A stretch of 64,000 nt of DNA from a virus, in the IMG/VR virus record IMGVR_UViG_3300034111_001103, positions 96,001 to 160,000 of that record. The stretch is one strand, 5' to 3'. The notes beneath the pieces were generated by a model, which did not search any database, was not told where the DNA came from, and saw only the letters and a program-made list of their open reading frames with translations. The position numbers and the translations under genes were made by a program. Of the stretch, positions 3,392 through 52,366 are shown piece after piece; positions within the stretch are counted from its first letter, which is position 1, and each line of letters opens with the position of its first letter.

Positions 3392-3907
3392 ATGATAACA
3401 CTTAATTATGATGATTGGTTTGAAAAGTATAAACCAATTAAAAATACAATAACAAAGAATTCCTCTTATGGTGGGACTATGTTTGAAACTTTTGGAGATG
3501 ATTTAGATTTTATTAAATCTCAACTTAATAATCAAATTTGGACATTATTATCTGTAGAAGATGAAGAATTTTGGATTATTCCAGGTTTTCATTGGGTTAA
3601 TAGAATGGGGTGTTTTGTTACAGAAATACCTTGGGAATTAAAAAACATACAAGTAAATGATAATGAAATGTGTACTATTGAAGAAGCTATTGAACATTGT
3701 ATAGTATTTGCAAGTAAAGAATTTGGTATAGAATTAAATTGGAATGATGTAAATAAACATTTTCAAAAAAACTTAGATATTACATTTAACAATGAAATGA
3801 CTATAGGTAGAGCTAAATATACTGCAATAGCTTATTATGAAGATAGTTTAAACAAAGAAATGAAAGAATTTGAAGATAAAATACATGATTATTACTCACA
3901 ATTATGA
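3392..3907 (+). CDS. Hypothetical phage protein (MITLNYDDWFEKYKPIKN...)
   Basis: ATG at 3392 is more likely than the track start at 3314, which overlaps the 59 aa ORF. Confidence 0.7.
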   Translation: MITLNYDDWFEKYKPIKNTITKNSSYGGTMFETFGDDLDFIKSQLNNQIWTLLSVEDEEFWIIPGFHWVNRMGCFVTEIPWELKNIQVNDNEMCTIEEAIEHCIVFASKEFGIELNWNDVNKHFQKNLDITFNNEMTIGRAKYTAIAYYEDSLNKEMKEFEDKIHDYYSQL

Positions 3908-37700: not shown

Positions 37701-38195
37701 AATAACATTAGTTATTTCTTCTGTTGTAGAAATTTTAATATTAGTAGAAGTTCTTGTAAAAGGTTCATCATTCTCAAAATACTCTCTATTTTCTTGTATT
37801 TCTTGACTAAGAGTTTCTTTTGGTTTTGCTTCTTCTTTTTGTTTTGCTTCCTCTTTTACTTGTTTTTGAAGTTCGTATATTTCTTTAGAATCATCTGTTG
37901 CATTTATAAGATTTAATTGATTATTAGTAGGTTCTATTTTAACCATACCTCTACCAGTAGCATCAAATCCAAGATAAGCTACTTTTCCTATATCTTTATA
38001 ACCATCATTAATAACAGTATTAATTGCATCAGCTACTGTTTTAGCCACTCCTGTTGAGGTTTTTAAGTTTATTTTTTTAGAGGGACTATCTAAAATACTA
38101 ATAAGACCAAAATTACCATCTTTTTTATAAAAAAACCAAGGCTTATTATCTAATATTCCTTCAACTACTTTGTGTAATCCAATTGAACAACTCAT
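28764..38195 (-). CDS. Giant polyvalent, probably virion-ejected protein (3143 aa) with zincin metallopeptidase, ART-like and PD-(D/E)xK nuclease domains
   Basis: STWCTASG module; HEVAH...E zincin (35487-35501); VYHGT...YFFS...YIVFEPEQI ART-like module (about 33.8-34.2 kb); GTEIH...GTIDF...DWKS...QLALY nuclease (about 32.3-32.8 kb). Lies directly downstream of the vRNAP gene. Confidence 0.8.
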   Translation of the reverse strand: MSCSIGLHKVVEGILDNKPWFFYKKDGNFGLISILDSPSKKINLKTSTGVAKTVADAINTVINDGYKDIGKVAYLGFDATGRGMVKIEPTNNQLNLINATDDSKEIYELQKQVKEEAKQKEEAKPKETLSQEIQENREYFENDEPFTRTSTNIKISTTEEITNVIKNQLPKEIANAVTVVQDVPLDILGRQDLFLSMKDVLEEKGITNPFLINWFGINLSANTSRGQIIKSITSEAQIEKMANDSYNKLLKLEDPILKNKDIKKSFDKWVKALENYPVVFKDLMLKHAIKHLRNPERRSKFVLQLSAVALQQTYGIAVNKPHELNRIGKLYDSEVLKTVSDAVGHEPSASGKGYWVHIPRTSSSNYLGFSSYEDFKENREKQIAEWEEIKNNPWTVSVVMGPIIQRFKTENEAIVFSMDKKNVSVDKNPHNEDYKIEKFKKELEDVEPENWKNNSQFKVNVELLRKLSPSTWCTASGMASHYVENYDNYLLIVDGVTVAGIEAYPGVDNSEKIQDLENKIKDLENNESYTIVDRNRIKGQPSTFTTTIKPFMGVKYQLSANSREEILNKEENTIKRINEDLQTELKYLKIKIQNLLEESELRKVKEVTSRANNGTSSIDHYDDILAFFEKHNLDTNNDSLNRAKKAKEAGKVDADEKVFDIYGYDWDPADFYPDDDRDDIEGEYRREREENERLFEEDLERRSTAVENLNTVEEVLQNPDYLEFFELLKPELRNNEEIARIGVESSPYNITHIDENLPFYNELVTMAVTKTPDVFSYLPHNIKEERIDLKKIYEDNIIKRDKETEEKLLKKQAEQEATALERSVKYNQTILEKYKVENPTFTLAQILNKMDYDGFDLDELPFSKTNTNQIQGYYDAKADKVVVVASNTPIEEASKVGIHEVAHRGMIRMAKELGGVQELGKVLFSAEKQLMEKLPELLKRTGHTSLENLMLDYGFTNQSEEGKIKLLMELAARWAETLIDKPKPSWWKEFLTSIQTWITKFTGKILNEKEVNELIGGFVKYGTKSNNNNTTNNTNQQDSLFSQEEANIKLGVEELFESDSNLANEVYEALGFQSNKKINEQENELKKLILEIDKVALNKIYQAKKNDIIKIGDYTFIFDGEYFKSEDDAGEFYKTPEELGNAYFDIEYGSPKQKISLNVLLSNLKTDNFEILGEKIKADKKLLEVKDANTNNLINPFINSAIQQPLYVGDKRKSLVNNKHPYQEPQYQGIYLSQDKSTTHVATSSKILTVFANVKNVKTISYDEYSKNQLKLKEVYNQYDAIEILPPSFVTGGKSDFIVFNNTNLYEVNSIAQITPQQKQQALQQYSQYLDQIFPNSVVKNIVYHGTDKIFESFSKNIEKIPNREISNTANAYFFSNDLSRIKDYGKNKINAILNVKEFLGFKNISNDRARVLSDMTYEKAKGYTDRNIDSVIADYDLYKDYIVFEPEQIHILGSKQDIERFKDFVNKGSNQNNENNTDTSTDTEVRKILNTPIVIEQEVTSSKDNTTDDLVEIKESEVKKKLQEILKILGITIERDADLPKDTLAKVDMLQKLISFSKGELTEDNFTEEVIHLIINIIEQKDPTLYDKMISEIWKFGIYKEVLDNYKDDPEYQTKEGKPDIAKLKKEAVVKLLVAKLVDNTNINDTKNIFGALWDKVSDFITNLFSKIPAYQRDLFEEFANDIVTKDNLINKEDVDKLGDGVFYSKKMSKANIFSSTMAKTKKAFGVASVEDYHLIIPSLKDSKEIFDLLKKINEETSLVVAREINPETGKEEEVTYYVTGTGMKKRVSTVLNEIKTNIGNYKTIDETEITAFIKEEKMKKGTEIHSTIEEIIGRHIDKETGFLKVTPEDRPQNIAIPEKYYNILEKHLKERLISYPKDTRFMVETKIVNEVYGYAGTIDFLAILPTGQVDILDWKSMDLSYNIGGKSMKREDVHALTKQVHRQQLALYKQALLSVGVKNFRQTRTIPIIVENTTKKINKSKSFEDPKNLVIRLTSLEIGNVDPNKEAKSYLLPISTSNEEVFDDITGKPISFLNTLIEKLEAYKAHSLEQRAQSTTLDRDRLLDQIQRTDKTIQELRSKKTTNLLITVFEDELFNINELSKKTFSFLKDNKNLSDLIPEQQQELRLYFDKMYENHNFLSSFLKVFPTLGELETIHKDMSPELVKSINSVKAKITISEEKLTVAVTKTMNQVGTILGMDDNVSDIDVKSSTMINSYSLYSRPELSLQMFTRLQKMINYLKEQEVQSFDSKMEKLMVGLQSWVKTNKTNLEGVYSKVYDKVNRRLIYKYKKEYFQTLFDKKEEAIKKHRDIIKGVSIQLSSKERITQISKEYRAYITPFIKENYDIKKYVQLYEEAYKAYKEVVDNYIFDADPFENADIQAKKLEEWEYRHNIFTNPKALQTSGFNKNELLFQTINEDKWISDEYRELLKPENKEVFDFYNQLQDILTDAKDSGMIESLNNLPEVKNDSFKIFTYLKAGLFKNYILSKFYAFYDRFLTNTYSSQNISDPFTNKDKKKIRSKYNNTFFLKRKPLESPEAYQERYNKEKVLYDMSLSKDLFYIFSVFGHHVIEYKILKEYESRFQLLSIVENNKTKEINTDNSKGNITLPLDDSGMPYYDDNKKLGITEGDKGTLRDLNRHIDYYLYNDKLAPKGALINIVNWLYSLTTQVNLGFTYTAPLTNLVAGLTNSTLTNNTYYNSSDFQNSILPAIKDKNTAVNVKNFTKLNKMFNPFVEMSDQVYTTNKYKTTEKRYINVTKASLFLYSAGDHIIQSKIIASIYYGTTVDENNNIISVEDFINNKYPDRYNLPKEERIKLAKKIDKEIKEYKKTNSLYNLVSTNSLNLDAKNNILLTSIIEDTIAKTLGNYSEQDINTFMTKWWAKFVTQHKKWLGETIATRLEPFNVNKNTNLLEWGRMRLSLDLLFASYGKHIPFLVFHNMSSVLPEIVRKSVNKNNTITLEDIAKERYKVMQVEFFKKTSKNLKVTEAEFIRFYVRQYENSLKEAKSLLTLFLLAKFILPFIVGGDDDDNKEKDTYRTTLDIVIVVLTRSLREQSFVFNPEQLKIMLLQGPIPTIGTAWNLIDSYIYAPLKETYFTLTGDDEALKTNRVIDKQLNATPAKGINKIVKQISPSYRKLLDARRPKIQ

Positions 38196-38212: not shown

Positions 38213-41200
38213 TTATTGTAAACATTTAGCATCTTTTTGAGATAAATTTGTATTTAAGCCTAACTCTTCAGAAGTTATATTACTTTCTTGTGATTGAGTA
38301 GGTTGGTTTTGAGTAAAAGGTAATTTTTGTTGATTATTTAGTTTATCTAACATATTTTGTAAAGATACTAAAAAATCTTGAGATTTAAAAGAATATCTTG
38401 ATTTTAATTCAGAATCCCAATATATTGGCATAGTATCCTTCATATTTCTTAGAAGGTTTTCATTCATATTAGGTCTTAATGTTTGAACACTTTCATTGTT
38501 TATGTAAGAAGGTTTGTAATCTGTATTTGAGTTGTAATATTCAGATGTTTCTCTGTTTCCATATTTTCTTACAGGAAAATAAGTAACTAGGAAACCTTTG
38601 TTATCTTTAGTTGCTACTAAAGGAACATCTTTTTCTTGAGTTATTGGATTAGGAACTTCTAATCTTTTATATAATACAATTTCATTAAAAGAAAAATCTT
38701 TTCTTTTAACCATAGCATCTTTTTCAACTTTAGTGTAATACTTACCAGTTTTAGGATTTATAGCTTGTTTCTTTACTTTAATGTAAGGTTTTTGTGTTAT
38801 TTCTTTAGATGAAGCTATTTGTATGATATTTACTGTTGCTTCTAAATCACCTTTTGTAACTTTTTGTTGTCTATAGATATTTTTAGTTCTATTTTCATAA
38901 ACAGGAGCTTGATATATAGGAACTAATTTGTTATCATACCATTTACTTTGATAATAATTATTAACAAAGTCTTCTATATATTGTTGTTGTAGTTCTGGAG
39001 ATAGTTTTTCTCTAAATTGAGTTAACACCTGAGCCATTATATTTTCTATAGCATCTGCTGGAATTAATGTATTGTAAGAATTAGGAGTATTTGTTACACC
39101 ATTTTGTGCTATAACCCCTATTATTATACTTTTAGCTAAGTTTTCTGTAGTTGCTTTTTTAGAAAGATTGTAAAGATCAGCAGTCATTTGATTAGACTCA
39201 TTACTATCTTCAGGTTTTCTTAAAAGTCTTGATTGGAAATGTTTGTCATCTTTGTTTAGATAAACAGGATTTACACCAATAATATTAGAAAGAAACATAG
39301 AACTACCTTTATAGGTTTCTTGAGCTTGTCTTATAGTATTAGCTATGTTTGTGTCTTTATTTAAGAAAAGAGTAGGATAATAACTTGATATTGTTTGATC
39401 TACAAGGGGACCATAAGTTATTGGTAATGTATGTAATAGATAAGTAACAAGATCTTTTCTTATATTTTTTAGTTCTTTTTCTATATCATCAATACTTTTT
39501 TTAGACTGTAATACACTATTCATTAATTTGTTTAGAAAAGGTCTTATTACAGGATTTTCAGATAAATACAATTCAGAAAAAGATTTAAGAATAGTATTTT
39601 TAATTTCATATAAATTACCTATATGGGTAGTTTTATATAATTCAAACATTGTTTTACCTAAAGAAGATTCTAATGCATCTTTTAGTTTACTAAGTTTTAC
39701 TCTAGTGGAATCAAAAGATCTATCTAAAGTAGTATCTACATTTACACCTTGTGAGAGAGTTAAAATATCTTGAGCTACTTGTTCTAATTGTCTAAATTGT
39801 ACTAGTAGTGTAGCTTGATTTATTGCAAAATCAGGATTTTTATCACTAAGAATAAATTCTTCTAATTCTTGATCTGTGTAGTTTTCTCTATCTAATGTTA
39901 TCATTCTACCTTCTTTATCTGTAGGTAGTTTATATTTGACTATTAATTGCTCTTGTATTTCTTTTTTACTTTTAGGGTTTCTTTTGTTAAGTCTAACAAG
40001 TGCTCCTTGATTTTGTATTAAAAGGTTAACATAATCTATTATAATAGGTTGATTAAAGAATCTTACTAAAGTAGAAAGAGGAATACCTAGTCTTACTCCA
40101 GCTATATAAGTACCAGCAGTAGTTAAGTTACCATTAGCATCAAAGATATAAGGTTTGTTAGCTATATCTACAAAAGCATCTAGAAACATAGATATTAAGT
40201 CACTTATTCTTTCACCTTTAGAATTTAATTCTTGTGATAAAGAATAAATAGTGTTAGCATCATTTACAGGAACATTAGTATTGAAAAGAAAAGGAAATTC
40301 TACAGGTATATTAGAAACAATAGTTTGAGATATAGCATTTAATGTTTGATTAGAAGCAGCAATACCAACACCCTCTTTCCCTACTAAGAAAGAATATCTT
40401 TTTACTATATTATGTAATCTAGATAATATACTTGTATGATAAGCTTTTTTCTTTTGGTTTCTTTCTTTCAGTTCTTTGATTTTATTAGCTTCATTCTCAA
40501 GAGGATCTGCACTGTTGGGTTTAACTAATTGTTTAAAGTTTTCTTCTAATTGTACTATTTCTCTTAGATTATCTATATAATAATTATCTAAAGCTTTTTT
40601 AGAGTTTTGTTCATAAATAGATAATTTTTTAAATTCTTCAAAAGTTGGTATAGATTTTTTTTCTTCTTCAGAATTTTGTTTAGCAATTTCTAGATTTTCA
40701 TCATAAGATTTTGTTAAATCTATTCTTGAATCTGAAAGATCTTCTCCAAATATATCAGAAATAAGTTTAGTCGAATCTGTATCTAAGGAAGCTTTAAAAT
40801 AATTATAACCTTCTTTACTATTTAAAAACTCATAAAAGGTTTGAGCTTTTTGTAATTTTTTATATCTTTCTTCTACAGTACTATTAGTATTGTTTAAGAA
40901 ATTGATTTTTTCTAACTTTCCTGTTTGTTTGTTGAATTTATGATTATAAAGATAAAGATTAAGTTTATCAATATCAAAATCCGAACCTGCTTTACCTACT
41001 ATTTCTGAAGGAACCATTATAGCATCTCCATAAGAAGGGTCTAAAAACCCTACTATTTCAAAATGTTCTACAGAATTGAGAGCTTGAGTAGGAATCCTAA
41101 AACCTATACCTTTTAAAAGTTCTTTATCTATTTTAGAAAAGTCAAAATTTTCTAATCCTAATAATTCTTTATATCTCCAAGGTAGTTTTACTTGACAAAT

Positions 41201-44200
41201 TCTTTTACCATCTTCATTTTTGTAGAATTTAAGTTCTCCAGAATATAATTTTTTAGTTTTAGAGTCTTTCTTTCTAGGGTTTCTTTCAAAAAGAGTAGAA
41301 GCTATTTGAGGAAATTGTCCTCCAAATATCTTAGGAGTAAGAATAGCTTTATTTATAATAGAGTTTATGATATTTTCTACTGTATCTGTTCCAGATATAA
41401 TAGTATCAAAGGGTAATATAAATTGTCCTTGATCATTAGTTCTTATAAGAGATTTAACATTTAAAGGTTTATCTCTGTTGACTAATTCTTGTTGAATTTT
41501 TTCTTCAAACTTTTTATAATTGTTAAAAGTTAATACTTTTCTATTTGTATTAGGATCTATAGTTACTTCTCCCCCAAAGTCTTTGTAGAATTGATTTATA
41601 GCTTTAGTTTCCATAGCAGCAAGAATCTCAAAATTCTTTCTAACTAGATTATAATGATTAGAAGCAGTTCTTTTTTCTTCTTCTGAAAGAGAATCCCATT
41701 CAGTTTTTAAATCTTCTTCTGATAGATGTGAGTTTGTTTTCCTAAAATCTTTAGGAACTCCATTAGACATTAAGTTTAATATACCTAATTTTGTTAACTG
41801 AGTACCTAGAGTAGTAGACATTTTTTGTGTTATAGTTTCTACTTGAATACCAAACCATTCCCAACTTAATACTTTATGTTTAATATTTAAATTAGGTGTA
41901 CCATTAGGTTTATATAACTCTTCAGTATCTTTAGTTTGACCTACTTTGTTAGCAGATTCAAAAGTTATATAAGTTGTTTGATTTGTATAATGTTTTATGT
42001 AGAAATCTTTAGCATTAGAGAATTTTACTTCTCCTGTTGCTTCATCTATATATCTTATATGACTCCATATTAAAGGAGCTACTGAATATTTATGTTGTTC
42101 AAAAGTACCATCAGATTTTAAACCATTATAAGCAGGTTTTAATATATTCATATTTGGAAGAGGTAAAGGGTTTAATCCTTGTTCTTCTCTTACTTTATTT
42201 ATAGCTTGTATTGTAAAGAAAGGATTACCTTTAGCTATTATTTTTTTATCTAAAGCTCTCAGGGCATCAGCTCTTTTTTTGTCTTTTTTAGCTTTAGGGT
42301 ATAAATCCATATCACTTCTACATAAAGCATCATCATATTGTTTGAAGGCTTCATCTACTTCAGTCCAAGAGTTAGCTCTTCTTTTTATTTGAGAATATCC
42401 CCCTAAAAAAGCTAGTGCTTGGGCATCAGGTTCTTTAAGTTCTGAGTAAGGTTTAGCTTCTTCTTCTCCTAAAATTTCTTTTAATGCTTCATATTCTTCA
42501 GACACTACTACAGGATCTATATATACTTGTACATTAAATTCCTCTTGATGATTAACATATCCTAAATCTCCAGGAAATAATTCTACAGATTCTGTAGATT
42601 CTTGTCCTATGGTATCTTCTTCTATAAAAGCTACATTACTATTTTTATTATGATAATCATTAAAATATTGTGCAGAATATACTACTTTTTGAGAACCTGA
42701 AGTAGTTTGTTTTATTCTCTTAAAAGGATCTTTCCATTCATTCGGGTTTAAAAAGAATAAGTTAAATTGTTCAAATATATTTATCATATATTTAACTTCT
42801 TCTTCATAAACAATACTAGCTATTTGCTCTTTAGAAATATTTTTAAATTTATTAAAAGTACCTTCTACAGTTTTTTCTTCTTTTCCTTCTGGAGTAAGTA
42901 ATATTCTGTATTCATCTTTTTTACCTTCTATAGGAACTATAAGATTATTTATCCATAGTCTATTTTCTGTTTCTTTAGCTCTTTCTTTGAAGAAAGTTAA
43001 AAGGTCTTTTTCTATATCTTCTTTATTTTTTAAAAGAATAGTTTCTATACCTTCTGAAAGATCTATATTAGATAAAGTCTTTTCTGAAAGTATTTCTTTA
43101 AAGAGACCTAATTGGTTTGTGTTTTGTTTTAAATTAGACTCTCTTTGAGCTTTTGCTACTTCAGCTTTAAAGTAATTAATAAATATAGGTAAGTAATAAA
43201 TTTTATCACTAGCAGAACTTAAAACACTTTTAGGATAAGTAATTACCCATTCATTCTTAGTATCTGCTGGTACTATAATAGAATATATATTATTTATACC
43301 ATTAGCAAAATCTAGAGCTAATCTTCCTGATAAAGATAATTTATTTGAAGCATCAGTATTATCAGATTGTCTCTCTTCTATACCTTCAGTTACACCTACA
43401 GTTATATTACCTTTTTTTGTACCTGAAGGACTAAATAATTCAGAATGCAACATAGTTTGAGCATAATGAGGTAGTCTATCTATTAATTCTCCTTTAGTAG
43501 ATATTGAATTAAATATCTTATTAATACTTGTAATATATGAAGGTAAAGTTATATTTTGAACCATTTCCCCCTCTATATTTTTATGTTGAGTAGTTTCATA
43601 TATAGGGTTGTATTTATTATAAAGCTGAGCTAATTTATCAAACTTACCTTTAAATTCTCTAGAATCTGTTATTATATTATCAATATTGCCTTCTTTTTCA
43701 CTTAAAGTATAATTTACTATACTACTTAGTAATTTTAAAATTTCATCTTCTTCTGTAGAAGTGTATTTTGTATACTTTAATCTTATATCTATACCTAATT
43801 CATCTTTTGCAAATTGTGCATATTGATCTAATGTTTTAAGTGTAGGTATTGGTTTTCCTAAATTAAATACATAATGTCCTTGACTAACAGATACTTTTTT
43901 ATTAGATTTTAGTTTTTCATACCACTCATTTTTAAGTTTGTTAATACCATCTTTTTCATTTATAACAAAATTAACAGAAGAACCATCTTCATTAACTATT
44001 AGTTTGTAGTAAGTATTTTTAAAATTACTAAAGGCTATAAAGAAATCATTTCTTAATTCTACAGTAGCTTTATCTACTACTTCTTCATCTAGTTTTAATT
44101 TATTTATTAATGGTAAAAATTTAGCATCAACTTTAGTAAGATCATACAACATATCCATCATTTCAGTATAATTTGTAGCAGGAGCTAAAGCATACATAAG

Positions 44201-47200
44201 TTGAACAAATGTTTTATTATAATCTACTAAAGTAGGTAGGAAAAGAGAATTAGGTCTAGTTATAACTCTTCTAGTAACAGGGGAATAATATTGATCTTTT
44301 AGTGTAGCTACTAAAAGTTTTATTTTTAGATTTGCATTAAGTTTTCTATTAATAGTTAATGTATTTACAAATTGATCATTCTTATCTTTGTTTTCTTTAT
44401 TTGGGTTATTTTCTTCTAATTCCTCATCTTCAAATTCTATTTTATATTTACCTAAGTATTTCTTATTAGCTTTAACAAAATAATCCCAATTATCTAGAAT
44501 ATAAAGCATAGAAGTTTGAACATCATGAAATTTTTCATTAGTTTCTTCTAAGGTTGCATTATGTACAGCAGTATAATATTTACCAGGTTCTTTAAAGAAA
44601 TTTCTTCTTTCTTCAGGACTAGACATAATATGTTCAAAAAAAGCACGAACTTCATCATAATAATTGTCTATATTAATGTCAGACTTTAACAAATTTCCTA
44701 AAGAATCTCCTTTATCTGTTATAAATTGAAACAATAAAGCAGTAATAGATTTCATTGAATCATTATAAAACAAAGGGTTTGTTAGTTCTATATCAGCAAG
44801 TTTATTTTCTTTTGTAAGAGAATTAAGATTATATTTTAATCTTAGCTTTCTATATTTCCCAGAAGATAGGTTTTTAAAAGTACTTTCTATATTACCTAAA
44901 AATAAATCAAGTATTATGTTATATAATTGTTTAAACCAAGAATTTTTATAATATTCTCCATCCCACTTTAACTTACCTTTAGATAAATGGTATCTCATAT
45001 ATTCATCAGCAAGTTCTTCTTTAATTTGAAAATCAGTAGCTTCTGAATATTTAACAGATTTTTTAGTTTGATAATCTATAAAAGAACCTTTTCTATTTCT
45101 AAATTCTTCTCTTAATCTTTCAATTCTTTTAGGAGATAAAAAGTGTTTTTGTAAAGCTTCATAAGCTTCATGTTGAATAGTACCTCTTTTAGCTAAAGTA
45201 GAAAGTAAAATAGCTTTATCTTTTAATTGTCCCCAAGCAACATTATCTATTAAACCTTCTACAGATTGTAAAGGTATTTGAGGTAAAACATTATCTAAAT
45301 ATTCTTCAGCTTTCTCTATATCTTCTACTTCATAATCAGTTTCTTCAGAATCAACTAATTTAAAATCTTTTATATTTTCTGAAGTTGTAGATATATCACT
45401 TTCATTAAAACCTATATTATTAGAGTTTGTTTCTTCTACTTTTTCTTCAGAAACTACAGGTTCTTTTTCTACTATAGGTTCTATTTTCTTAAAACTATAA
45501 CTTTCTTTTGCAAAAACACCTAATTCAATAATATTTGATTTTATTAACTCTTTAATTACTTCATTAGATAATTTAGAATTAAATGTTTTATCAATAGTTA
45601 CAGTTTTTTCTTCCCCAACAGTTTTAATAGTATAATTTACTATTAAGTCTTTATTTGTAAGTTGATAAGAACCATCTTCACTTGAAAAAGGTATATCTTC
45701 ATTAGCAGATTCAAAAGATTCTGTATCAACATAAGCATATTTAGTATCATCTTTAAATACCATCATTCTTCCAAACTTATTAGGGGTAGTTTCAGAAGAA
45801 GGATTTAGTTTTATTTTTAAAGGTATTTCATCATTACTTCTTTTATTACCATTAGGAAGGATATCAGAAATAAGATAATCTTGATAAGTAGCCCATTTTC
45901 TTTCTAATAACTTTCCTTTTTCTAGATAATATTCTATAAACTCATTCATCATACCATTAGAGTCTATATTATGAAATATCATTCTATTATTTAACTCATT
46001 TTTTATTTTTGGTAAACCTTTAGTGTTAAGGGGTAATAAAGATGTTTTTGGTATCTGAATACTAAATGATGGTGAAGTTTTAAAAAATATTTGATTGTTA
46101 CCTAAAGGAGTTTCTTGTTTTACAGTTTCACCATTTTTATCAGTATATTCAGGATTTCTGATATATAGAATTTTAGATAAAAAGTCAAATAATTTTTTAT
46201 TTTCTTTTGAAGTTTCTATCTTTTCTTCTTTATCTTGAGATAATGATAGTTTTTTGTTTTCTCCTATTTTTGTAAGAACAGCCATCACAACATCTATGTC
46301 TTCTGGAGATATTCTTCTATTTTCTAGAAATTCTAAATGTGTACCTACTTTTACAAAAGGTCTTCCTTTAGGGAAACTTTTTTCTTGTTTGTTATGTACT
46401 ATTACAAAATTACCTTCTTTATTTTTTTCAGGAAATATAACTATTTGAGTATTAGGTTCTTTAATATCTAAACTTTGAGTAATAGGAAAAGATTTTTTAG
46501 CATCTTCTACAGGTCTTCCTCTAGTAACATAAAGAATAGGAAAAGTGATATTTTTTTTCTTACCTTTTTTTATAGTTTCAATAATATTATTTCTTCTTGC
46601 AATATGTTCATTTTGAAAATTTTCTGGAGTTTTTTCTGTACTATTAGAATTTTCATGATAGTTTTCCTCACCATTATTCCAAGTAAGTTTAGGTAATCTC
46701 ATAGAAGTATAAATAACTGTATCAGGGTTTATATCTTTAAGATATTTACCATCTACACCTATAAATTTTATTTGACCATTTCCTAATTTTTTTACTACTA
46801 CTAGTTTAATATCTTTACTTTCTTTTGAAGGAAATATTATACCACTTAAACCATAATTTGAAGCATTATCTTCAGTTAGTGCTAAAAGTTCATATTGTCT
46901 AATATCTTCTACATTATTTAAAAATGTTTGTAGTCTAGTAACTTGAGGGTTATCTTTTAAACTTTCTTTTCCAGTTTGTCCAATAGTATGTCCACTTGTT
47001 GTAGTAATAAATAATTGTTCTATACCTAATTTATCATCCTCAGATTCAATTCTTTTAATATCTTTTGTAGGATCATCTGTTTCTTCAGAAGATTCTGTAA
47101 TTTCTATTATAGGGGTTTCTTGAGTAGTAGATGTAGGTTGTTCTTTAGATAGTAGGGATTGTATTTGATTTTTAAAATTACTTATTTGATTATTATATCT

Positions 47201-50200
47201 GTTTTCTACTTCTGATATTTTTTTGTTTACTTCTGCTAATTGTTGTTTTAGTTGGTCAAGTTTTGTGTTTTCTGATTTAGAATAGTAAACACCTTCAGAA
47301 ACAAATCCTTCTGCCACATAGTCAATAGGATTTTCAATCATGTTTTTTAAAATACCTAAAGCCTCATCATAAGCATTTGTAGATATTCCTAAAATATCTA
47401 AAATATAATCAAAAAACCTTTCTACAAAATTTAATTCTTTGTTTTTTAAAGCATCTGTAAAACCATCATGTGTAAGTTCAGCAAGTATTTCATGTTCATT
47501 TTTTGAACCATAAAAATCTTTTGTGTTAGAATCACTCTGTAACTCTCTCAATAAATTAGAAAGTTTTTTAGCAGCATTAATTTGTTTTGGGGTAAGTTTA
47601 TTTAAAACTTCTGTTTTGTTGTATTTAACAGCATCTATTATGTAACTTGTAACACCGTGCACTAACTCATGTACAATAGTCCTTGCTGCTACATCAGGAC
47701 TTGTTAATAAACTTGCACGATTAGCTACTTGCCCATTAGAATATTCACCTTGATGTTCTTTTGCAATATTGTTACCTTTACCCTCAAGAAGAAATTTTGT
47801 AGGTATTTTTAATTTTTCTGCGACATTTTTTATTAAATTCCATATAAACTTAGTTTGTTTACTACCATGTTTTTGCACAAAAGCATCTAACTCATTTGCA
47901 TAATAAACTTTATCTAAGTCTATCCCTAGTTCTTCAGCAGATAATTTACTACGTTCATTTATACTTTCATCTACTGCTTCCTGATTTTCATTTAGTTTAT
48001 CTACTCTTGTACTGTTATCTTCAAAATATTCTAATTCAGAAGGTCTTTTGTAAGTAGTGCTATTTCTTTTTTCTAATTCTTGTATTATTTCTTCAAATGT
48101 AAAATCAGTAGTTTCTACAAAACGGTTTAATACCCTTATATCTTTATCTGATAAATTGTTTAATTGTGAAAAACTATCAACTAATGCTACAATTTGGTTT
48201 TTAAAACTTTTTTGTAAAAATCTTATCTTTTTATTAAGTTTATTAAACAAGGATATTTTATTGTCAGGAATAGAACCATCTTCATTTCTAAGATTTACAA
48301 TTTCTTTTTTTGCATCTTCAATTTCTTGCGTACTAGTTTCCGAACCTTTAGTATCTTTCTCAATTTCAGCAATCTCATTTTCTAATCTTTCTTTTTCTTC
48401 AATTAAAGGTTGTAGCTCTTTTGCTTTAGCTTTTTCTGCTTTTTCTATTTGTTTTTCTAATTCTTGTCTTCTTCTTTCTATATCAGCTTCTTTAGTTTCT
48501 ATAGTATTATCTACCTGATCAGTAGTAGTTTCTTCTTGTTCTATTCCTAAATCTAATAATATATCTTCATCAGAAGTTAAGACTTTTTCAGATACTAAAG
48601 AAGAGTTTATTTTAGTTTGTTTAGGAGTATTATCTTTTACTAGATCTTTGAGTTTTTTTAACCTAGAGTTTTTATTATTGTTTTGGTAACTTTCTAAATC
48701 GGATAAAAGAACTTGTTGATCTTTAAGTTTTCCGTCTTCTTTATATCTAAACATTACAAATCCTTTACCATCTTTAGGTCTGTACACTAATCTACCTTTA
48801 ACAACTGTTTCCTTTCCCTTAATATCTACAGGAAAAGTAAAAATAGTATTTTTGTGATCATAAACAAATCCTTTAGGATGGTTTAATTCTCTGTATTTTT
48901 TTAGAGAAGATTTTGGTGTAAATCTTTTATTATCAAAGTAATTAGCTGGTACTTCTTTTTCTATATTATCTTCTAGTATTTTTAATTTACCATTAGGTAA
49001 TTGTTCTAAGATAGTAACATCTTTAGTTTCAAATACTTTAGCTTTTTCTTTAGATTTAACAAAATTATAGACATGTAAAACTTCTCCTTTGTTATAAAGT
49101 TTGTTTTTTATTTGAATTTTATCTTCAGGAACAGGTTCTATATTATCTATAGCTTGAGCTTCAGTATTTATATTAGTTATTCTTTCTTGAAGTTTAGATT
49201 TTAATTCATCTATTCTTTTTATATCATCAGTATAAAGTTTTCTATCAGGATTCTTTTCAGAAGAAAACATTTCATTTGTAAACTCAAATTGTTTTTTGTA
49301 TTCATCTAATTTTTTAATAACACCTTCCAACACAGGAATATTTATTGATTCTGTATCTAGTAATGCAAAAAATTCTGGTAAATGTTTAGAAAGAGCTTTA
49401 GTGGGATCTGCTTGAAATTCATCTCTAAATGTAAGAGCTTTCTTTTTAAGAACATCTCTTTCTTCATTTAACTGATTTATTCTATCAAAAGTTTCTTCTG
49501 AAGGAGTACTTACTTGAGATAGTTTAAATAATTGATGAGTTAAGTTATAAAATTCATCTTCTTCTTTAGGATTTAATAAATATGGAGTATAAGGAAGAGA
49601 ATCTTTTCTAGTCATTTTAACATCTGAATAATAATCTTCTACTTTATCTACTACTTCTTTTCTATTTTTAGCTTCAGGAAATAGTTTTAATAAAGTTTTA
49701 TCATCTACAGTATTTAAATATTGTCTAGCTAATAGTAGATATTGTTCAGGATTTTGATAAATTTCTGAAGTAAAGTTTGCTAAACCACTTTTAGCAGTAT
49801 GAGATAAACCTCTATAACCACCCATACCCATTGTAGGTAACATAGCTAAAGTAGTATTCATTATGGTACTTAGAGTTTCTTCATAAGTTAGTCTATCATC
49901 TGCTTTGAATTTTAAATTATTTCTCTCTACACTTTTATCAAAAGGGGTATTGGCAACATTTCCTACTAATTCTTCTATACTTTCTTCCATAGGAACTTTT
50001 ACTAAAGAACTAAATAAAGTTTCTACAGTAGATTTCATTACAGGAGAAATCATAGATTTACCTAATGATTGTCTTAGAAATTGTTTTAATACAAAATCTT
50101 TTATAGGTTGTTTTGAAAGAGATTTAAATAAATCATATTCAGGAGTCCACCACATTTCTGTACCTGTTTCTATAAGTTTCTCTCTTTCTGTTTTAGTTAA

Positions 50201-52366
50201 TGCAGCATTAAGACTATCTAAATCACCACTAAGGTAACTTTCAAAGTTTTGTTTAAATATTTCATCGTGCATTAATAATTGTCCAGCAGGTAACCTACCT
50301 ACTTTATCTGCAAAGTATCTTACTAAACCCAATTGACTTTTAGACAGCAAAGCTTCTATTCCTGTAGCTGCACCTATTTCTGCTCCTGCTGCTGCTAACA
50401 TAGCACTTTCTATAAAACTAGAAATACCTTCTCTAAATGCAGCTCTAGGGTTTATAGATTTAGACCATTTTATAGAACCATCTTTTCCTCTTACTATAGT
50501 AAAAGCTTGTACATCCTTAATTGCTTTAGGAACATACATATTTATATTGTTTGCATCATTTTTAAATTGTGCATATGTTTTTAATACTTGTTCATCTTTA
50601 GAAAGAACACCTGTTGCATTTCCCCCAATAAGAGCATAATTATGAACAGCATTAACTACACCTACCATTCCACCTACAGTAGGTTTGGTGAAAGGTTGTA
50701 CTATATCAAATTGTACAGAAAATTCTTTAGCTTTTCTTTCATATTGTTCTGTGGTTTCTTTAAAGTTTTTAAAGTCTTTAAAGTTTTCTAGTTCTATTTG
50801 ATCTATTTTTTCTTTGACTTTATCCTGTTGATTAGCTAAAGTGTTATATTTTTGTATTTGATTGTCAATCTCTTGTAAACTTTTAGGATCTATTTGTTGT
50901 CCTTTTGCTTTAAATTCAGCAATAGATTCTTGTTTATATTTAGATAATTCTCCAGCATACTTAGTATACATTTTTTTATTACCTTCAGTAAGAGCCTTTA
51001 AAGTTTCTAATCCTGAAAGAGTTTTTTCTTGAAAGTCCACTACATTTATATCATAAAGATTTCTTAACCCACTTTTAGCTATAGCAGATTTAGCTCTTGA
51101 GTCTCCTAAAATAGAGTTCTCTTTCAAATATTCTTCTAAAGTTTGCCCATTATTACCTCCAATAAATGTTCCTTTTTTAGTAAACATAGAGTTTAAGGCA
51201 GATTTTAGTTCTGGATTGGTTAAAGCACTTGATTCATATCCTAATTTACTTGCTTTAAAAAGAATATCGTTATTGTTTTGAGCTAAAAATTTTTCTGGAG
51301 CTTCTCTTATTACTTTAGCTTCAGTATTATTTATTATATAAGGTATAGAAGCTTTTTGATCTAAAGAAATTATTCTATTATTAAGATCTTCTTTTTTTCT
51401 TTCTAAAAAATGGATAGTTTTATCATACTTAAATATTCTATCTAGAGTATCTTCATACTCTTGTATTTTAACACTATTATCTTTACAACCTTCACCAACA
51501 CAATCTTTGTATCTTCCTAAAGTTTGCTTTAATAAGTTTTGATTAATTTTACTTTTTTCTAGGTAGTCTTCAAGTTTATTTTTTTCTTCTAAAAAACCTT
51601 CTTTTATAGGAGCAGTAAGTTTAGTTATTCCTTCACTTATTTCTTCTGTAGTTTTATTAGGGTCAAATAAAGTATCATAAAGTTCTTTTTTAACTTGATC
51701 TCCTTGTTTAAGAGCCATCATATACATCTCTTTATTAGAAGGATTATTTAAATCTATATTAACTAAATTTTGTTTATCATCTACATAACCAGATTTTATA
51801 TCATAAGTACCAAACATTTGTTTAAAAGCTTGACCATAAAATAACTCTTCTACAGACATAGGTTCCTTTCCTTCAACAGAAGGGGGTAAATCACCTTTTA
51901 ATCTTTTTTCTTCTCCTTGTCCAAATAATACACTTGTTTTAGTAGGTTCTATTGGAGCTTTAACATTTAAAGGATTAGGAATAATTTCATCATACATACT
52001 AGCATATTTCTCTACAGATCTATTTAGATTTCCTTGAGCTATAGTTTTTTGAACATTAGTACTTAAGGGTTTAATTATAGGAGAAATAGGTTTAGTAGTA
52101 TCATTTAGATTTACATTACTAGCTTTAGTTTGTAAAGTCTTAATGTTACTATCTAGTTCTGTTTTTGGGTCTGTAGTAGATTCATAATACCTAGATTTAA
52201 AAGTATTTATATCTGGTAATTTTATGTCACCTTTTTGTAATTTACCATATAAACTATCTAAACCTTCTGGTGTAGAATATTTTGTTTTAAATGTATTATA
52301 GTCAGGAACTTTTATATTTCCTGCGTCTAATTTGTCATAAAGTATTTTTAATTTATCTTCTGGCAT
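38213..52366 (-). CDS. Giant virion-associated RNA polymerase (crAss-like two-barrel vRNAP) with accessory zincin domains, 4717 aa
   Basis: Catalytic GSDFDIDKL (DFDID at 40967-40981) preceded by FRIPTQ; DAQ, KYSV and AFVDIANKP motifs; HELVH zincin at 47657-47671. Confidence 0.9.
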   Translation of the reverse strand: MPEDKLKILYDKLDAGNIKVPDYNTFKTKYSTPEGLDSLYGKLQKGDIKLPDINTFKSRYYESTTDPKTELDSNIKTLQTKASNVNLNDTTKPISPIIKPLSTNVQKTIAQGNLNRSVEKYASMYDEIIPNPLNVKAPIEPTKTSVLFGQGEEKRLKGDLPPSVEGKEPMSVEELFYGQAFKQMFGTYDIKSGYVDDKQNLVNIDLNNPSNKEMYMMALKQGDQVKKELYDTLFDPNKTTEEISEGITKLTAPIKEGFLEEKNKLEDYLEKSKINQNLLKQTLGRYKDCVGEGCKDNSVKIQEYEDTLDRIFKYDKTIHFLERKKEDLNNRIISLDQKASIPYIINNTEAKVIREAPEKFLAQNNNDILFKASKLGYESSALTNPELKSALNSMFTKKGTFIGGNNGQTLEEYLKENSILGDSRAKSAIAKSGLRNLYDINVVDFQEKTLSGLETLKALTEGNKKMYTKYAGELSKYKQESIAEFKAKGQQIDPKSLQEIDNQIQKYNTLANQQDKVKEKIDQIELENFKDFKNFKETTEQYERKAKEFSVQFDIVQPFTKPTVGGMVGVVNAVHNYALIGGNATGVLSKDEQVLKTYAQFKNDANNINMYVPKAIKDVQAFTIVRGKDGSIKWSKSINPRAAFREGISSFIESAMLAAAGAEIGAATGIEALLSKSQLGLVRYFADKVGRLPAGQLLMHDEIFKQNFESYLSGDLDSLNAALTKTEREKLIETGTEMWWTPEYDLFKSLSKQPIKDFVLKQFLRQSLGKSMISPVMKSTVETLFSSLVKVPMEESIEELVGNVANTPFDKSVERNNLKFKADDRLTYEETLSTIMNTTLAMLPTMGMGGYRGLSHTAKSGLANFTSEIYQNPEQYLLLARQYLNTVDDKTLLKLFPEAKNRKEVVDKVEDYYSDVKMTRKDSLPYTPYLLNPKEEDEFYNLTHQLFKLSQVSTPSEETFDRINQLNEERDVLKKKALTFRDEFQADPTKALSKHLPEFFALLDTESINIPVLEGVIKKLDEYKKQFEFTNEMFSSEKNPDRKLYTDDIKRIDELKSKLQERITNINTEAQAIDNIEPVPEDKIQIKNKLYNKGEVLHVYNFVKSKEKAKVFETKDVTILEQLPNGKLKILEDNIEKEVPANYFDNKRFTPKSSLKKYRELNHPKGFVYDHKNTIFTFPVDIKGKETVVKGRLVYRPKDGKGFVMFRYKEDGKLKDQQVLLSDLESYQNNNKNSRLKKLKDLVKDNTPKQTKINSSLVSEKVLTSDEDILLDLGIEQEETTTDQVDNTIETKEADIERRRQELEKQIEKAEKAKAKELQPLIEEKERLENEIAEIEKDTKGSETSTQEIEDAKKEIVNLRNEDGSIPDNKISLFNKLNKKIRFLQKSFKNQIVALVDSFSQLNNLSDKDIRVLNRFVETTDFTFEEIIQELEKRNSTTYKRPSELEYFEDNSTRVDKLNENQEAVDESINERSKLSAEELGIDLDKVYYANELDAFVQKHGSKQTKFIWNLIKNVAEKLKIPTKFLLEGKGNNIAKEHQGEYSNGQVANRASLLTSPDVAARTIVHELVHGVTSYIIDAVKYNKTEVLNKLTPKQINAAKKLSNLLRELQSDSNTKDFYGSKNEHEILAELTHDGFTDALKNKELNFVERFFDYILDILGISTNAYDEALGILKNMIENPIDYVAEGFVSEGVYYSKSENTKLDQLKQQLAEVNKKISEVENRYNNQISNFKNQIQSLLSKEQPTSTTQETPIIEITESSEETDDPTKDIKRIESEDDKLGIEQLFITTTSGHTIGQTGKESLKDNPQVTRLQTFLNNVEDIRQYELLALTEDNASNYGLSGIIFPSKESKDIKLVVVKKLGNGQIKFIGVDGKYLKDINPDTVIYTSMRLPKLTWNNGEENYHENSNSTEKTPENFQNEHIARRNNIIETIKKGKKKNITFPILYVTRGRPVEDAKKSFPITQSLDIKEPNTQIVIFPEKNKEGNFVIVHNKQEKSFPKGRPFVKVGTHLEFLENRRISPEDIDVVMAVLTKIGENKKLSLSQDKEEKIETSKENKKLFDFLSKILYIRNPEYTDKNGETVKQETPLGNNQIFFKTSPSFSIQIPKTSLLPLNTKGLPKIKNELNNRMIFHNIDSNGMMNEFIEYYLEKGKLLERKWATYQDYLISDILPNGNKRSNDEIPLKIKLNPSSETTPNKFGRMMVFKDDTKYAYVDTESFESANEDIPFSSEDGSYQLTNKDLIVNYTIKTVGEEKTVTIDKTFNSKLSNEVIKELIKSNIIELGVFAKESYSFKKIEPIVEKEPVVSEEKVEETNSNNIGFNESDISTTSENIKDFKLVDSEETDYEVEDIEKAEEYLDNVLPQIPLQSVEGLIDNVAWGQLKDKAILLSTLAKRGTIQHEAYEALQKHFLSPKRIERLREEFRNRKGSFIDYQTKKSVKYSEATDFQIKEELADEYMRYHLSKGKLKWDGEYYKNSWFKQLYNIILDLFLGNIESTFKNLSSGKYRKLRLKYNLNSLTKENKLADIELTNPLFYNDSMKSITALLFQFITDKGDSLGNLLKSDINIDNYYDEVRAFFEHIMSSPEERRNFFKEPGKYYTAVHNATLEETNEKFHDVQTSMLYILDNWDYFVKANKKYLGKYKIEFEDEELEENNPNKENKDKNDQFVNTLTINRKLNANLKIKLLVATLKDQYYSPVTRRVITRPNSLFLPTLVDYNKTFVQLMYALAPATNYTEMMDMLYDLTKVDAKFLPLINKLKLDEEVVDKATVELRNDFFIAFSNFKNTYYKLIVNEDGSSVNFVINEKDGINKLKNEWYEKLKSNKKVSVSQGHYVFNLGKPIPTLKTLDQYAQFAKDELGIDIRLKYTKYTSTEEDEILKLLSSIVNYTLSEKEGNIDNIITDSREFKGKFDKLAQLYNKYNPIYETTQHKNIEGEMVQNITLPSYITSINKIFNSISTKGELIDRLPHYAQTMLHSELFSPSGTKKGNITVGVTEGIEERQSDNTDASNKLSLSGRLALDFANGINNIYSIIVPADTKNEWVITYPKSVLSSASDKIYYLPIFINYFKAEVAKAQRESNLKQNTNQLGLFKEILSEKTLSNIDLSEGIETILLKNKEDIEKDLLTFFKERAKETENRLWINNLIVPIEGKKDEYRILLTPEGKEEKTVEGTFNKFKNISKEQIASIVYEEEVKYMINIFEQFNLFFLNPNEWKDPFKRIKQTTSGSQKVVYSAQYFNDYHNKNSNVAFIEEDTIGQESTESVELFPGDLGYVNHQEEFNVQVYIDPVVVSEEYEALKEILGEEEAKPYSELKEPDAQALAFLGGYSQIKRRANSWTEVDEAFKQYDDALCRSDMDLYPKAKKDKKRADALRALDKKIIAKGNPFFTIQAINKVREEQGLNPLPLPNMNILKPAYNGLKSDGTFEQHKYSVAPLIWSHIRYIDEATGEVKFSNAKDFYIKHYTNQTTYITFESANKVGQTKDTEELYKPNGTPNLNIKHKVLSWEWFGIQVETITQKMSTTLGTQLTKLGILNLMSNGVPKDFRKTNSHLSEEDLKTEWDSLSEEEKRTASNHYNLVRKNFEILAAMETKAINQFYKDFGGEVTIDPNTNRKVLTFNNYKKFEEKIQQELVNRDKPLNVKSLIRTNDQGQFILPFDTIISGTDTVENIINSIINKAILTPKIFGGQFPQIASTLFERNPRKKDSKTKKLYSGELKFYKNEDGKRICQVKLPWRYKELLGLENFDFSKIDKELLKGIGFRIPTQALNSVEHFEIVGFLDPSYGDAIMVPSEIVGKAGSDFDIDKLNLYLYNHKFNKQTGKLEKINFLNNTNSTVEERYKKLQKAQTFYEFLNSKEGYNYFKASLDTDSTKLISDIFGEDLSDSRIDLTKSYDENLEIAKQNSEEEKKSIPTFEEFKKLSIYEQNSKKALDNYYIDNLREIVQLEENFKQLVKPNSADPLENEANKIKELKERNQKKKAYHTSILSRLHNIVKRYSFLVGKEGVGIAASNQTLNAISQTIVSNIPVEFPFLFNTNVPVNDANTIYSLSQELNSKGERISDLISMFLDAFVDIANKPYIFDANGNLTTAGTYIAGVRLGIPLSTLVRFFNQPIIIDYVNLLIQNQGALVRLNKRNPKSKKEIQEQLIVKYKLPTDKEGRMITLDRENYTDQELEEFILSDKNPDFAINQATLLVQFRQLEQVAQDILTLSQGVNVDTTLDRSFDSTRVKLSKLKDALESSLGKTMFELYKTTHIGNLYEIKNTILKSFSELYLSENPVIRPFLNKLMNSVLQSKKSIDDIEKELKNIRKDLVTYLLHTLPITYGPLVDQTISSYYPTLFLNKDTNIANTIRQAQETYKGSSMFLSNIIGVNPVYLNKDDKHFQSRLLRKPEDSNESNQMTADLYNLSKKATTENLAKSIIIGVIAQNGVTNTPNSYNTLIPADAIENIMAQVLTQFREKLSPELQQQYIEDFVNNYYQSKWYDNKLVPIYQAPVYENRTKNIYRQQKVTKGDLEATVNIIQIASSKEITQKPYIKVKKQAINPKTGKYYTKVEKDAMVKRKDFSFNEIVLYKRLEVPNPITQEKDVPLVATKDNKGFLVTYFPVRKYGNRETSEYYNSNTDYKPSYINNESVQTLRPNMNENLLRNMKDTMPIYWDSELKSRYSFKSQDFLVSLQNMLDKLNNQQKLPFTQNQPTQSQESNITSEELGLNTNLSQKDAKCLQ

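Follow-up and report, generated by a model that had tools for sequence, protein, structure and literature searches.

Results

A zincin cassette is inserted into a giant virion cargo protein

A zincin-type metallopeptidase module of about 460 residues is a laterally acquired, lineage-specific in-frame insert within a giant virion cargo protein of the virus record IMGVR_UViG_3300034111_001103 (IMG/VR). The record is a complete genome of 168,934 bp with terminal repeats, and the stretch analysed here, referred to as the window, comprises 64,000 nucleotides (positions 96,001 to 160,000). On its minus strand, the window encodes a protein of 4717 amino acids (aa) that includes a virion RNA polymerase (vRNAP) of the crAss type. 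We consider it probable that the zincin module is a self-contained unit that moved laterally, in frame, into this cargo/polymerase protein, where it would function as an accessory endopeptidase acting in the host cell. All motifs quoted in a first-pass annotation of this DNA, together with the T/E-rich linkers outside the two long helices (arms) enclosing the module, were found in frame within this one open reading frame (ORF; 38213-52366, Table 1).

A search with the polymerase core yielded 196 giant proteins of 3000-5800 aa, the best 120 of which were examined and are referred to as the listed relatives. The polymerase motif DFDxD is present in all 120. A hidden Markov model (HMM) of the module (A1) detected it in one of them only, P0085, which belongs to a strain 98.7% identical to that of the window. 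BLASTP homology to the nearest relatives breaks at aa ~1222-1360 and resumes at aa 1757/1758 in almost every case. The adjoining flanks are common to the near relatives, and an HMM of the N-terminal flank was detected in P0086-P0099 with E values of 1e-14 to 1e-28. From flank to flank, 14 near relatives span 293-338 aa (mostly 315-317), compared to 505 aa in the window protein. The segments between the flanks of these 14 proteins are mutually alignable and all-helical, and AlphaFold2 predicted four long helices with low-to-moderate confidence (predicted local distance difference test (pLDDT) 64). Judged by these alignments, the zincin module in this lineage occupies the place of the conserved helical segment. 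As all 14 near relatives have the same segment of 293-338 aa, the insertion site is not a hot spot. The description of the zincin as inserted, already given in the first-pass annotation, is borne out by its absence from 119 of the 120 listed relatives, its other positions elsewhere and its foreign composition. The 61 differences between the window protein and P0085 are clustered, with none in aa 1183-3000, and are uninformative on the cassette specifically.

The module occurs at different positions in other proteins

Among 1.84 billion representative proteins, 82 carry the module; many of these have 2000-6000 residues, and the position of the module within them is very variable. In P0007, which is encoded on the crAss-like contig L004 and adjoins a muzzle-protein gene, the module is located after, and not before, the block homologous to aa 1764-2176 of the window protein. 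In P0008, it is placed after the conserved zincin described below. In L003, the cassette resides in a called gene of 643 aa and is the sole part of this 19-kb locus with similarity to the window protein. The module is, hence, neither fixed nor collinear in related vRNAPs, in keeping with its earlier description as an insert. A comparison of the window protein (P0001) with P0002, a relative from IMG/VR, revealed 38.9% identity in the module (E 1e-62) and 27% in the polymerase core (E 3e-6). In P0012 and P0013, an ART-PolyVal domain lies beside the module. The window genome carries a single copy, and a tblastn search of deposited phage genomes with the module gave three weak matches only (two Helicobacter-associated records and bajarodcaudo virus 1). 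Pfam scans for an intein or homing-type element identified no Hint, intein or homing-endonuclease domain in P0001 (at E up to 1) or in the segment.

Two of these loci have a further peculiarity. At 7654-14805 of L003, the 643-aa cassette gene is in another frame than the flanking ORFs of 787 and 962 aa; these two lie in a common frame, with overlaps of 16-17 nt with the cassette gene. The gene could be free-standing, with overlapping starts and stops, or could be part of a broken larger gene. At 17857-19252 of L004, the giant gene of P0007 ends at 2619 aa, and the small ORFs behind it include a GIY-YIG endonuclease gene. This arrangement suggests that the cargo/polymerase gene is split and has a homing-endonuclease-like gene next to it.

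The base composition of the cassette differs from that of its surroundings

CpG is depleted throughout the window, with 59 occurrences in 64 kb (observed/expected (o/e) 0.06). The limits of the cassette used for the CpG test were set by homology (aa 1291-1750) and not by composition. The giant gene contains 16 CpG, nine of them at aa 1211-1570. Within the 1380 nt of the cassette there are 7 CpG (o/e 0.28), compared to 9 in the 12774 nt of the remaining gene (o/e 0.04; binomial P = 4.3e-4), and the polymerase part (38213-43700) has three, that is 0.55 per kb. A higher local CpG density than in the polymerase core, as stated in the first-pass annotation, was thus confirmed. The area of the cassette represents the densest CpG cluster of the window (9 within 1380 nt), for which the chance is 0.0014 if 59 CpG are placed uniformly. 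As a correction, two of the clustered CpG (at aa 1211 and 1222) lie just beyond the cassette, in the flank common to the relatives. Three of the four CGT arginine codons of the gene fall within aa 1150-1700.

In P0007 on L004, the G+C content at third codon positions (GC3) drops from 0.35-0.40 to 0.03-0.10 at aa ~1700, remains low until aa ~2200 and then returns to 0.27-0.40, with both arms located inside the dip. Lesser GC3 dips occur in L003, L006, and L001. The three closest copies of the module have a GC content of ~0.26-0.27 and a CpG o/e of ~0.28 regardless of the carrier genome; probably, the individual phages acquired their copies from different members of a pool of low-GC donors.

Across the window, GpC shows a normal value of 0.93, and AG/CT are elevated to ~1.33. 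The CpG depletion possibly reflects avoidance of a CpG-directed host system or a mutational bias; our search for literature on CpG depletion in Crassvirales returned nothing relevant. A second CpG cluster (33974-34770, 7 CpG in ~800 nt) falls in aa ~1142-1407 of a neighbouring minus-strand ORF of 3143 aa (28764-38195), where it overlaps a sub-threshold match to ART-PolyVal (aa 1342-1450, E 8.9e-5), and may represent another laterally acquired cassette. A third cluster (1637-2940, 8 CpG in 1.3 kb) is situated among plus-strand ORFs near 1221-2231.

The module is predicted to be an intact gluzincin of the polyvalent-protein type

The HELVH sequence of the module is the only HExxH motif of the whole protein. 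In an alignment of 35 homologues, six positions (H1566, E1567, H1570, Y1619, E1626, and L1631) show a conservation of 90% or more. These 35 homologues were also the basis of an AlphaFold2 model of aa 1280-1745 (466 residues), which reached a mean pLDDT of 82.9. In the model, HELVH is located on a helix (segment residues 278-302), the nearly invariant E1626 on the next helix (345-353), and three predicted strands (segment residues 244-247, 261-264, and 267-271; pLDDT ~72-97) come immediately before the HExxH helix. The catalytic residues are intact, and the domain is predicted to be a metallopeptidase of the gluzincin type. The conserved tyrosine is positioned seven residues before the glutamate ligand, which we take to be a likeness to the active site of lethal factor. 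The helical subdomain preceding the zincin is conserved with P0002-P0010 from the motif 'EI.NLR..DG.IP' onward.

A Foldseek search against the Protein Data Bank (PDB) returned in its top rows one zincin catalytic domain of the lethal-factor type (E 0.1-0.3, probability 0.6-0.89, ~265 columns, identity 15-18%); no match reached an E value of 0.001 or better with the 466-residue model, which includes the arms and thereby weakens single-domain matches. The resemblance to the lethal-factor-type gluzincin core (MEROPS M34) concerns the fold and motif of the catalytic core and not membership of that family, and the cassette is devoid of toxin-type accessory domains. The Pfam family PF18818 (MPTase-PolyVal) gave no match on P0001 and scored 13.4 bits on P0002 (E 0.081, cut-off 27.5). 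Because the metallopeptidase superfamily of polyvalent proteins comprises 12 divergent clades (Iyer et al. 2017, PMC5512222), this result excludes the Pfam family but not the superfamily. Among the 35 homologues, eight matched phrog_2206 'virion RNA polymerase' (best 3e-10) and five phrog_87 'metallo-protease'; eight matched SprT-like (PF10263) below the curated threshold (best E 2.9e-5), to which the window copy gave no match.

From this, we infer membership of the module in the group of zincin-like metallopeptidases found in phage 'polyvalent' virion proteins. Such metallopeptidases have been described as the hub domain of polyvalent proteins that is always fused to N4-like virion polymerases, and that of the N4 vRNAP has been linked by HHpred to the structure of lethal factor (Iyer et al. 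2017, PMC5512222). The cassette shares with this group the three-stranded sheet, the HExxH helix and the glutamate helix, a position in the middle of giant delivered proteins beside effector domains (4717 aa for the host protein, 2000-6000 aa for the homologues), the association with a virion RNA polymerase, the presence of ART-PolyVal in homologues and, also in homologues, matches to the N4-type polymerase PHROG. Unlike these metallopeptidases, it is hosted by a crAss two-barrel polymerase and not by a T7-like polymerase of the N4 type, it has its own terminal pair of long helices, and there is direct compositional evidence of its lateral in-frame transfer.

The A1 profile also matched podophage ejection proteins, namely PhiM1 gp48 (8vb2_A, residues 382-554; E 3e-4), 23sg_S (gp10), and 9sfn_G, with 8e-4 as a further E value among these matches. 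Like the giant cargo protein, these T7/phiKMV-like proteins are packaged in the capsid and ejected before the DNA. They resemble the cassette in the profile from the HExxH motif to the glutamate, and the HExxH motif is also found in them. The similarity is confined to ~100-170 residues, however, and the ejection proteins are not fused to a polymerase. The PhiM1 paper does not mention zinc or a protease for gp48; no papers were found for PDB entries 9sfn and 23sg.

Two long helices enclose the module and are predicted to pair

In the AlphaFold2 model, the module begins with a helix of 56 residues (aa 1283-1338, segment residues 4-59, block pLDDT ~83-96) and ends with one of 39 residues (aa 1702-1740, segment residues 423-461). 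Pairing of these arms was read from which solved hairpins cover both of them at once. In a comparison with 48,161 solved chains using VIA-align, the best matches were antiparallel two-helix hairpins with ~100 residues aligned over model residues 5-466. The top match was IpaB (5wkq_B; Z 10.2, root-mean-square deviation 2.1 Å, 102 aligned), and LapD2, HP0958, ESCRT-III hairpins, and the dynein stalk were also among the matches (best Z 9.6-10.2). As these hairpins align to both arms at once, the arms must be adjacent and antiparallel to each other in the model. When folded as two separate chains, the arms scored 0.55 ('weak support'), compared to 0.01 for the best of three controls; contact agreement between the runs was 98% or higher, with a partner pLDDT of 83 or more. 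Of 78 solved complexes, 51 passed the mark applied in this procedure, as did 2 of 108 mismatched pairs; passing scores of 0.60 or less were obtained by only 5 of the 78 solved complexes and by all four passing mismatches (of 180). Taken together, the in silico data support pairing of the terminal helices as a predicted antiparallel two-helix stalk. The geometry predicted, two antiparallel helices with a globular end, is that of coiled-coil stalk domains such as the dynein stalk, SMC/Rad50, and IpaB-type hairpins. This is an architectural analogy only, since at Z values of 9.6-10.2 hairpins match by shape and no homology is implied.

Arms 46-67% identical to those of the window protein flank the same zincin in P0003, P0007, P0024, and P0055 (the closest with E values of 1e-9 to 1e-14). 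The N arm is 50-67% identical to the N arms of P0003, P0007, and P0024, and the C arm 51-81% identical to the C arms of P0042, P0003, P0004, P0007, and P0011. When compared with the helical segment of the near relatives, the arms produced generic matches only (E 0.01 or weaker), none of which was significant. Because the arms accompany the same zincin elsewhere, lie inside the GC3 patch of L004 and are unlike the segment of the relatives, they belong to the cassette and travel with the zincin rather than being a fixed part of the host protein. The first-pass annotation had proposed an antiparallel stalk serving as a socket of the vRNAP; the AlphaFold2 model upholds the antiparallel pairing, indirectly and with the weak two-chain support given above, while the assignment of the stalk to the host protein did not hold.

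No domain other than this zincin was found enclosed by such arms. P0042, in which the C arm might be attached to other cargo, was ambiguous and not counted: its truncated N-terminus contains FFDFLSDLF, which resembles FFDYILDIL of the zincin and suggests the same domain, yet the A1 HMM was negative. The motif KEQ.TSTTQ at the cassette flank is likewise found in P0003 and P0042. The two linkers contain an imperfect direct repeat of 22 nt (family D14: 47123-47144 and 48521-48542, 73%). DNA repeats were considered as cassette borders and rejected; they are short and imperfect and, in such AT-rich DNA, not distinguishable from chance, and they were not used as evidence. Opposite the N arm and the helical subdomain lies an antisense ORF of 153 aa (48057-48518, plus strand), most likely a by-product of E/K-rich codons.

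A second, conserved zincin-like domain has a variant motif

A further zincin-like domain is found downstream of the cassette. It is conserved in 124 of 126 giants and precedes the polymerase motif by a fixed distance. Of these 124, 98 have HExxE and 26 have HExxH as the motif, always with a conserved E-x-L-A-E downstream. The corresponding sequence of crAss001 gp47 is HEAFH...ENMAE, and the window protein has HEAYE; the domain thus departs from the canonical HExxH while being homologous to gp47 (tblastn E 2e-5). Orthologues of phi14:2 gp65 contain the conserved zincin of Crassvirales cargo proteins, for which polymerase activation or peptidoglycan digestion has been raised (Drobysheva et al., bioRxiv 10.1101/2020.03.07.982082). 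The gp47/gp65 zincin and that of the cassette are alike in providing a zincin-type motif within a virion-packaged cargo protein associated with the RNA polymerase. They are unrelated in sequence, and the former keeps a fixed position in all relatives, whereas the cassette represents a second, accessory zincin ~800 aa upstream that is restricted to this lineage.

Judged by this distribution, HEAYE is a conserved, clade-wide variant and not the outcome of random decay, and the conserved change from histidine to glutamate suggests an altered metal site rather than a lost function. None of the listed relatives with HExxE carries the cassette. The view expressed in the first-pass annotation, that a new active protease may have replaced a decayed one, is therefore not supported, given both the conservation of HExxE and the absence of the cassette from those relatives.

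The host protein is a fusion of a gp47-like protein and an RNA polymerase

The region from aa 3300 to 4300 is 23-28% identical to the 'putative RNA polymerase' genes of crAss001, cr128_1, and cr108_1 (tblastn, E down to 2e-20). In both motif and similarity, the protein conforms to the crAss-type virion RNA polymerases (phi14:2 gp66/crAss001 RNAP). The region around HEAYE (aa 2399) matches crAss001 gp47, annotated as 'putative RNA-polymerase subunit' (tblastn E 2e-5). Based on these two matches, the 4717-aa protein joins a cargo protein of the gp47 kind to a two-barrel virion RNA polymerase of the crAss type. The crAss001 counterparts are cargo packaged in the capsid and are thought to leave it partly unfolded (PMC10172136). 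A Pfam scan of the whole protein gave a sub-threshold Baculo_Ac102 row only, and a PHROGs scan gave no matches.

The strain encoding P0085 differs at both ends of this protein. Its N-terminus consists of ~40 residues unrelated to the 67 of the window protein (52166-52366), and a C-terminal extension of ~470 aa contains DUF7831 (E 1e-7) and a sub-threshold match to a 2OG-Fe(II) oxygenase; the window protein ends with ...DAKCLQ (38213-38260) and lacks this extension. Thus, modules are exchanged at the termini of the giant gene as well.

Table 1. Features of the giant cargo protein, its zincin cassette and the flanking regions; positions are those of the window.
Feature	Residues (aa)	Window position	Strand	Basis
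Giant virion cargo protein, 4717 aa		38213..52366	(-)	Single open frame
Conserved N flank common to near relatives	1181-1252	48611..48826	(-)	Flank HMM, alignment A2
T/E-rich linker before N arm, EQEETTTDQVDNTIET	1276-1291	48494..48541	(-)	Translation
Inserted cassette (N arm, helical subdomain, linker, zincin, C arm); A1 profile match spans aa 1291-1743	1291-1750	47117..48496	(-)	Homology limits
N arm, one long helix, KEADIERRRQELEKQIEK...LENEIAEIEK	1283-1338	48353..48520	(-)	AlphaFold2 and homology
N-arm motif KEADIERRRQEL	1292-1303	48458-48493	(-)	Translation
LENEIAEI	1328-1335		(-)	Translation
Helical N-terminal subdomain	~1347-1435	48062..48328	(-)	AlphaFold2 helices, segment residues 68-156
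Zincin catalytic domain (predicted)	~1457-1677	47336..47998	(-)	Model, conservation, Foldseek
GEYSNG	1540		(-)	Translation
TIVHELVHGVT	1563-1573	47648-47680	(-)	Translation
HELVH, putative zinc-binding/catalytic motif	1566-1570	47657..47671	(-)	Motif and conservation
Y1619 to E1626 (Y-x6-E), both residues nearly invariant, E1626 being the likely third zinc ligand	1619-1626	47489..47512	(-)	A1 conservation
HEILAE	1625-1630		(-)	Translation
C arm, one long helix, LDQLKQQLAEVNKKISEVENRY...	1702-1740	47147..47263	(-)	AlphaFold2 and homology
C-arm sequence LDQLKQQLAEVNKKISEVENRY	1703-1724	47195-47260	(-)	Translation
T/S/E-rich linker after C arm, SKEQPTSTTQETPIIEITESSEETDD	1740-1769	47060..47149	(-)	Translation
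Conserved C flank common to near relatives, includes LF.TTTSG	1758-1800	46967..47095	(-)	Alignment A2, BLASTP
crAss gp47-type zincin-like domain	2371-2479	44930..45256	(-)	Homology to relatives and gp47
HEAYE	2399-2403	45158-45172	(-)	Translation
EELAD	2450-2454		(-)	Translation
DFDID, catalytic motif of crAss-type virion RNA polymerase	3796-3800	40967..40981	(-)	Motif search

Discussion

A laterally moved module of this kind could be accommodated as follows. The paired end helices would bring the termini of the module together and allow in-frame splicing without breaking the host protein, so that insertion would be structurally tolerable. The module would be packaged and ejected with the cargo protein, refold in the host cell and act there as a zinc endopeptidase. 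As nearly all close relatives are devoid of the module, its role is presumably accessory. For the same reason we favour an effector role in cleaving host or defence proteins, to which we assign a little less than an even chance. Both this function and self-processing have been listed for such metallopeptidases (Iyer et al. 2017, PMC5512222). Self-processing, in which the cassette would mainly serve to cleave the giant fusion, either within the capsid or once ejected, and thereby free the polymerase part from the N-terminal part, is the less favoured of the two but a serious candidate. Autoproteolysis has been proposed for polyvalent metallopeptidases including those of N4-type vRNAPs (Iyer et al. 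2017, PMC5512222), and fused crAss polyproteins have been suggested to be cleaved, with the zincin possibly activating the polymerase (Drobysheva et al., bioRxiv 10.1101/2020.03.07.982082). The window protein is just such a fusion, and its conserved zincin is without the second histidine. However, fusions of the same size without the cassette, mostly with HExxE, are found in 119 of the 120 listed relatives, so that processing, if needed, would proceed independently of the module, which moreover occurs in the 643-aa called gene and beside ART domains. A structural or envelope-related role would take up what remains after these two. In its strict form, with the module as a non-catalytic part of a conduit across the envelope, comparable to the homologous region in large T7-type ejection proteins, we regard such a role as improbable. 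The best sequence matches among solved structures are indeed internal virion or ejection proteins (PhiM1 gp48, 23sg gp10, and 9sfn), and the silence of the PhiM1 paper on zinc and proteolysis would fit. Yet the full set of H, E, H, Y, and E is conserved across 35 diverse homologues, which argues for retained chemistry, and the matched ejection proteins possess the motif, too.

The origin of the module can also be read in other ways. The first-pass annotation regarded the arms as a fixed antiparallel coiled-coil socket of the vRNAP for swappable domains, in which an active protease took the place of a decayed one. The arms do pair in silico, the module is not collinear among relatives, the second zincin is without the canonical second histidine, and near relatives have long helices at the site. 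This reading is nevertheless unlikely, the arms being homologous to those around the same zincin in unrelated contexts, located inside a foreign GC3 patch and without significant similarity to the helical segment of the relatives, which has a near-constant length in all 14. Furthermore, no other cargo has been found between such arms, which leaves the swappable-domain proposal without an example, and HExxE is the prevailing form, with no listed close relative that combines it with the cassette. Least probable of all, in our estimate, is an ancestral module that was present in the common ancestor of the giants and deleted in almost all of them, its composition being the product of selection and not of transfer. 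The distant vRNAP giants P0002, P0008, P0010, and P0026 also have the module, as ancestry would predict, but those copies sit at differing positions relative to the conserved zincin, and the site shows no deletion scar in the near relatives, which instead share a homologous helical segment there. Selection on the protein sequence does not explain why GC3 changes so sharply at the borders of the module in L004, and P0001 and P0002 are far more similar in the module than in the polymerase core.

Several points weigh against lateral acquisition of an accessory endopeptidase. The fit to solved zincins is weak (Foldseek E 0.1, template modelling score ~0.22). The window's own copy was significant in no Pfam or PHROG model, and scans of the segment returned zincin families below threshold only. 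In the window, GC and GC3 of the cassette (GC3 0.113 vs 0.094) are near those of the host gene, leaving CpG and arginine codons as the sole markers. Copies of the cassette are mutually 46-57% identical; 'recent' is, therefore, to be understood relative to the host framework and does not denote a very young transfer. The survey of relatives covers the best 120 of 196. Pairing of the arms is a prediction with a predicted template modelling score of 0.53 and a 'weak' two-chain result, and the controls were not coiled coils.

Zincins within polyvalent virion proteins, including virion polymerases, are already known, as is a zincin in crAss cargo proteins. New are a second, distinct zincin family in a crAss-type vRNAP fusion, and the combination of homology and composition borders that indicates in-frame lateral movement to different positions. 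New as well are the module's own helices, predicted to be paired, and the HExxE form of the conserved domain. That form, which is the prevalent one in this clade, bears on the proposed polymerase-activating role of the gp47-type domain.

crAss-like phages are the most abundant phages of the gut and the environment, and to our knowledge their giant virion-packaged proteins are among their least understood parts. The present case provides a concrete unit of ~460 residues for asking how domain exchange assembles polyvalent cargo proteins, and whether embedded zincins serve in self-processing or attack host proteins can be addressed with this module. More speculatively, the terminal helices may represent a general 'plug-in adaptor', by which an effector on its own coiled-coil hairpin, with adjacent ends, could be inserted in almost any surface loop or linker. 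If so, the T/S/Q-rich '..STTQ..KADIE..' linkers would be recombination joints, and cassettes marked by GC3 or CpG would constitute a main route of payload exchange between crAss-like cargo proteins and free-standing genes.

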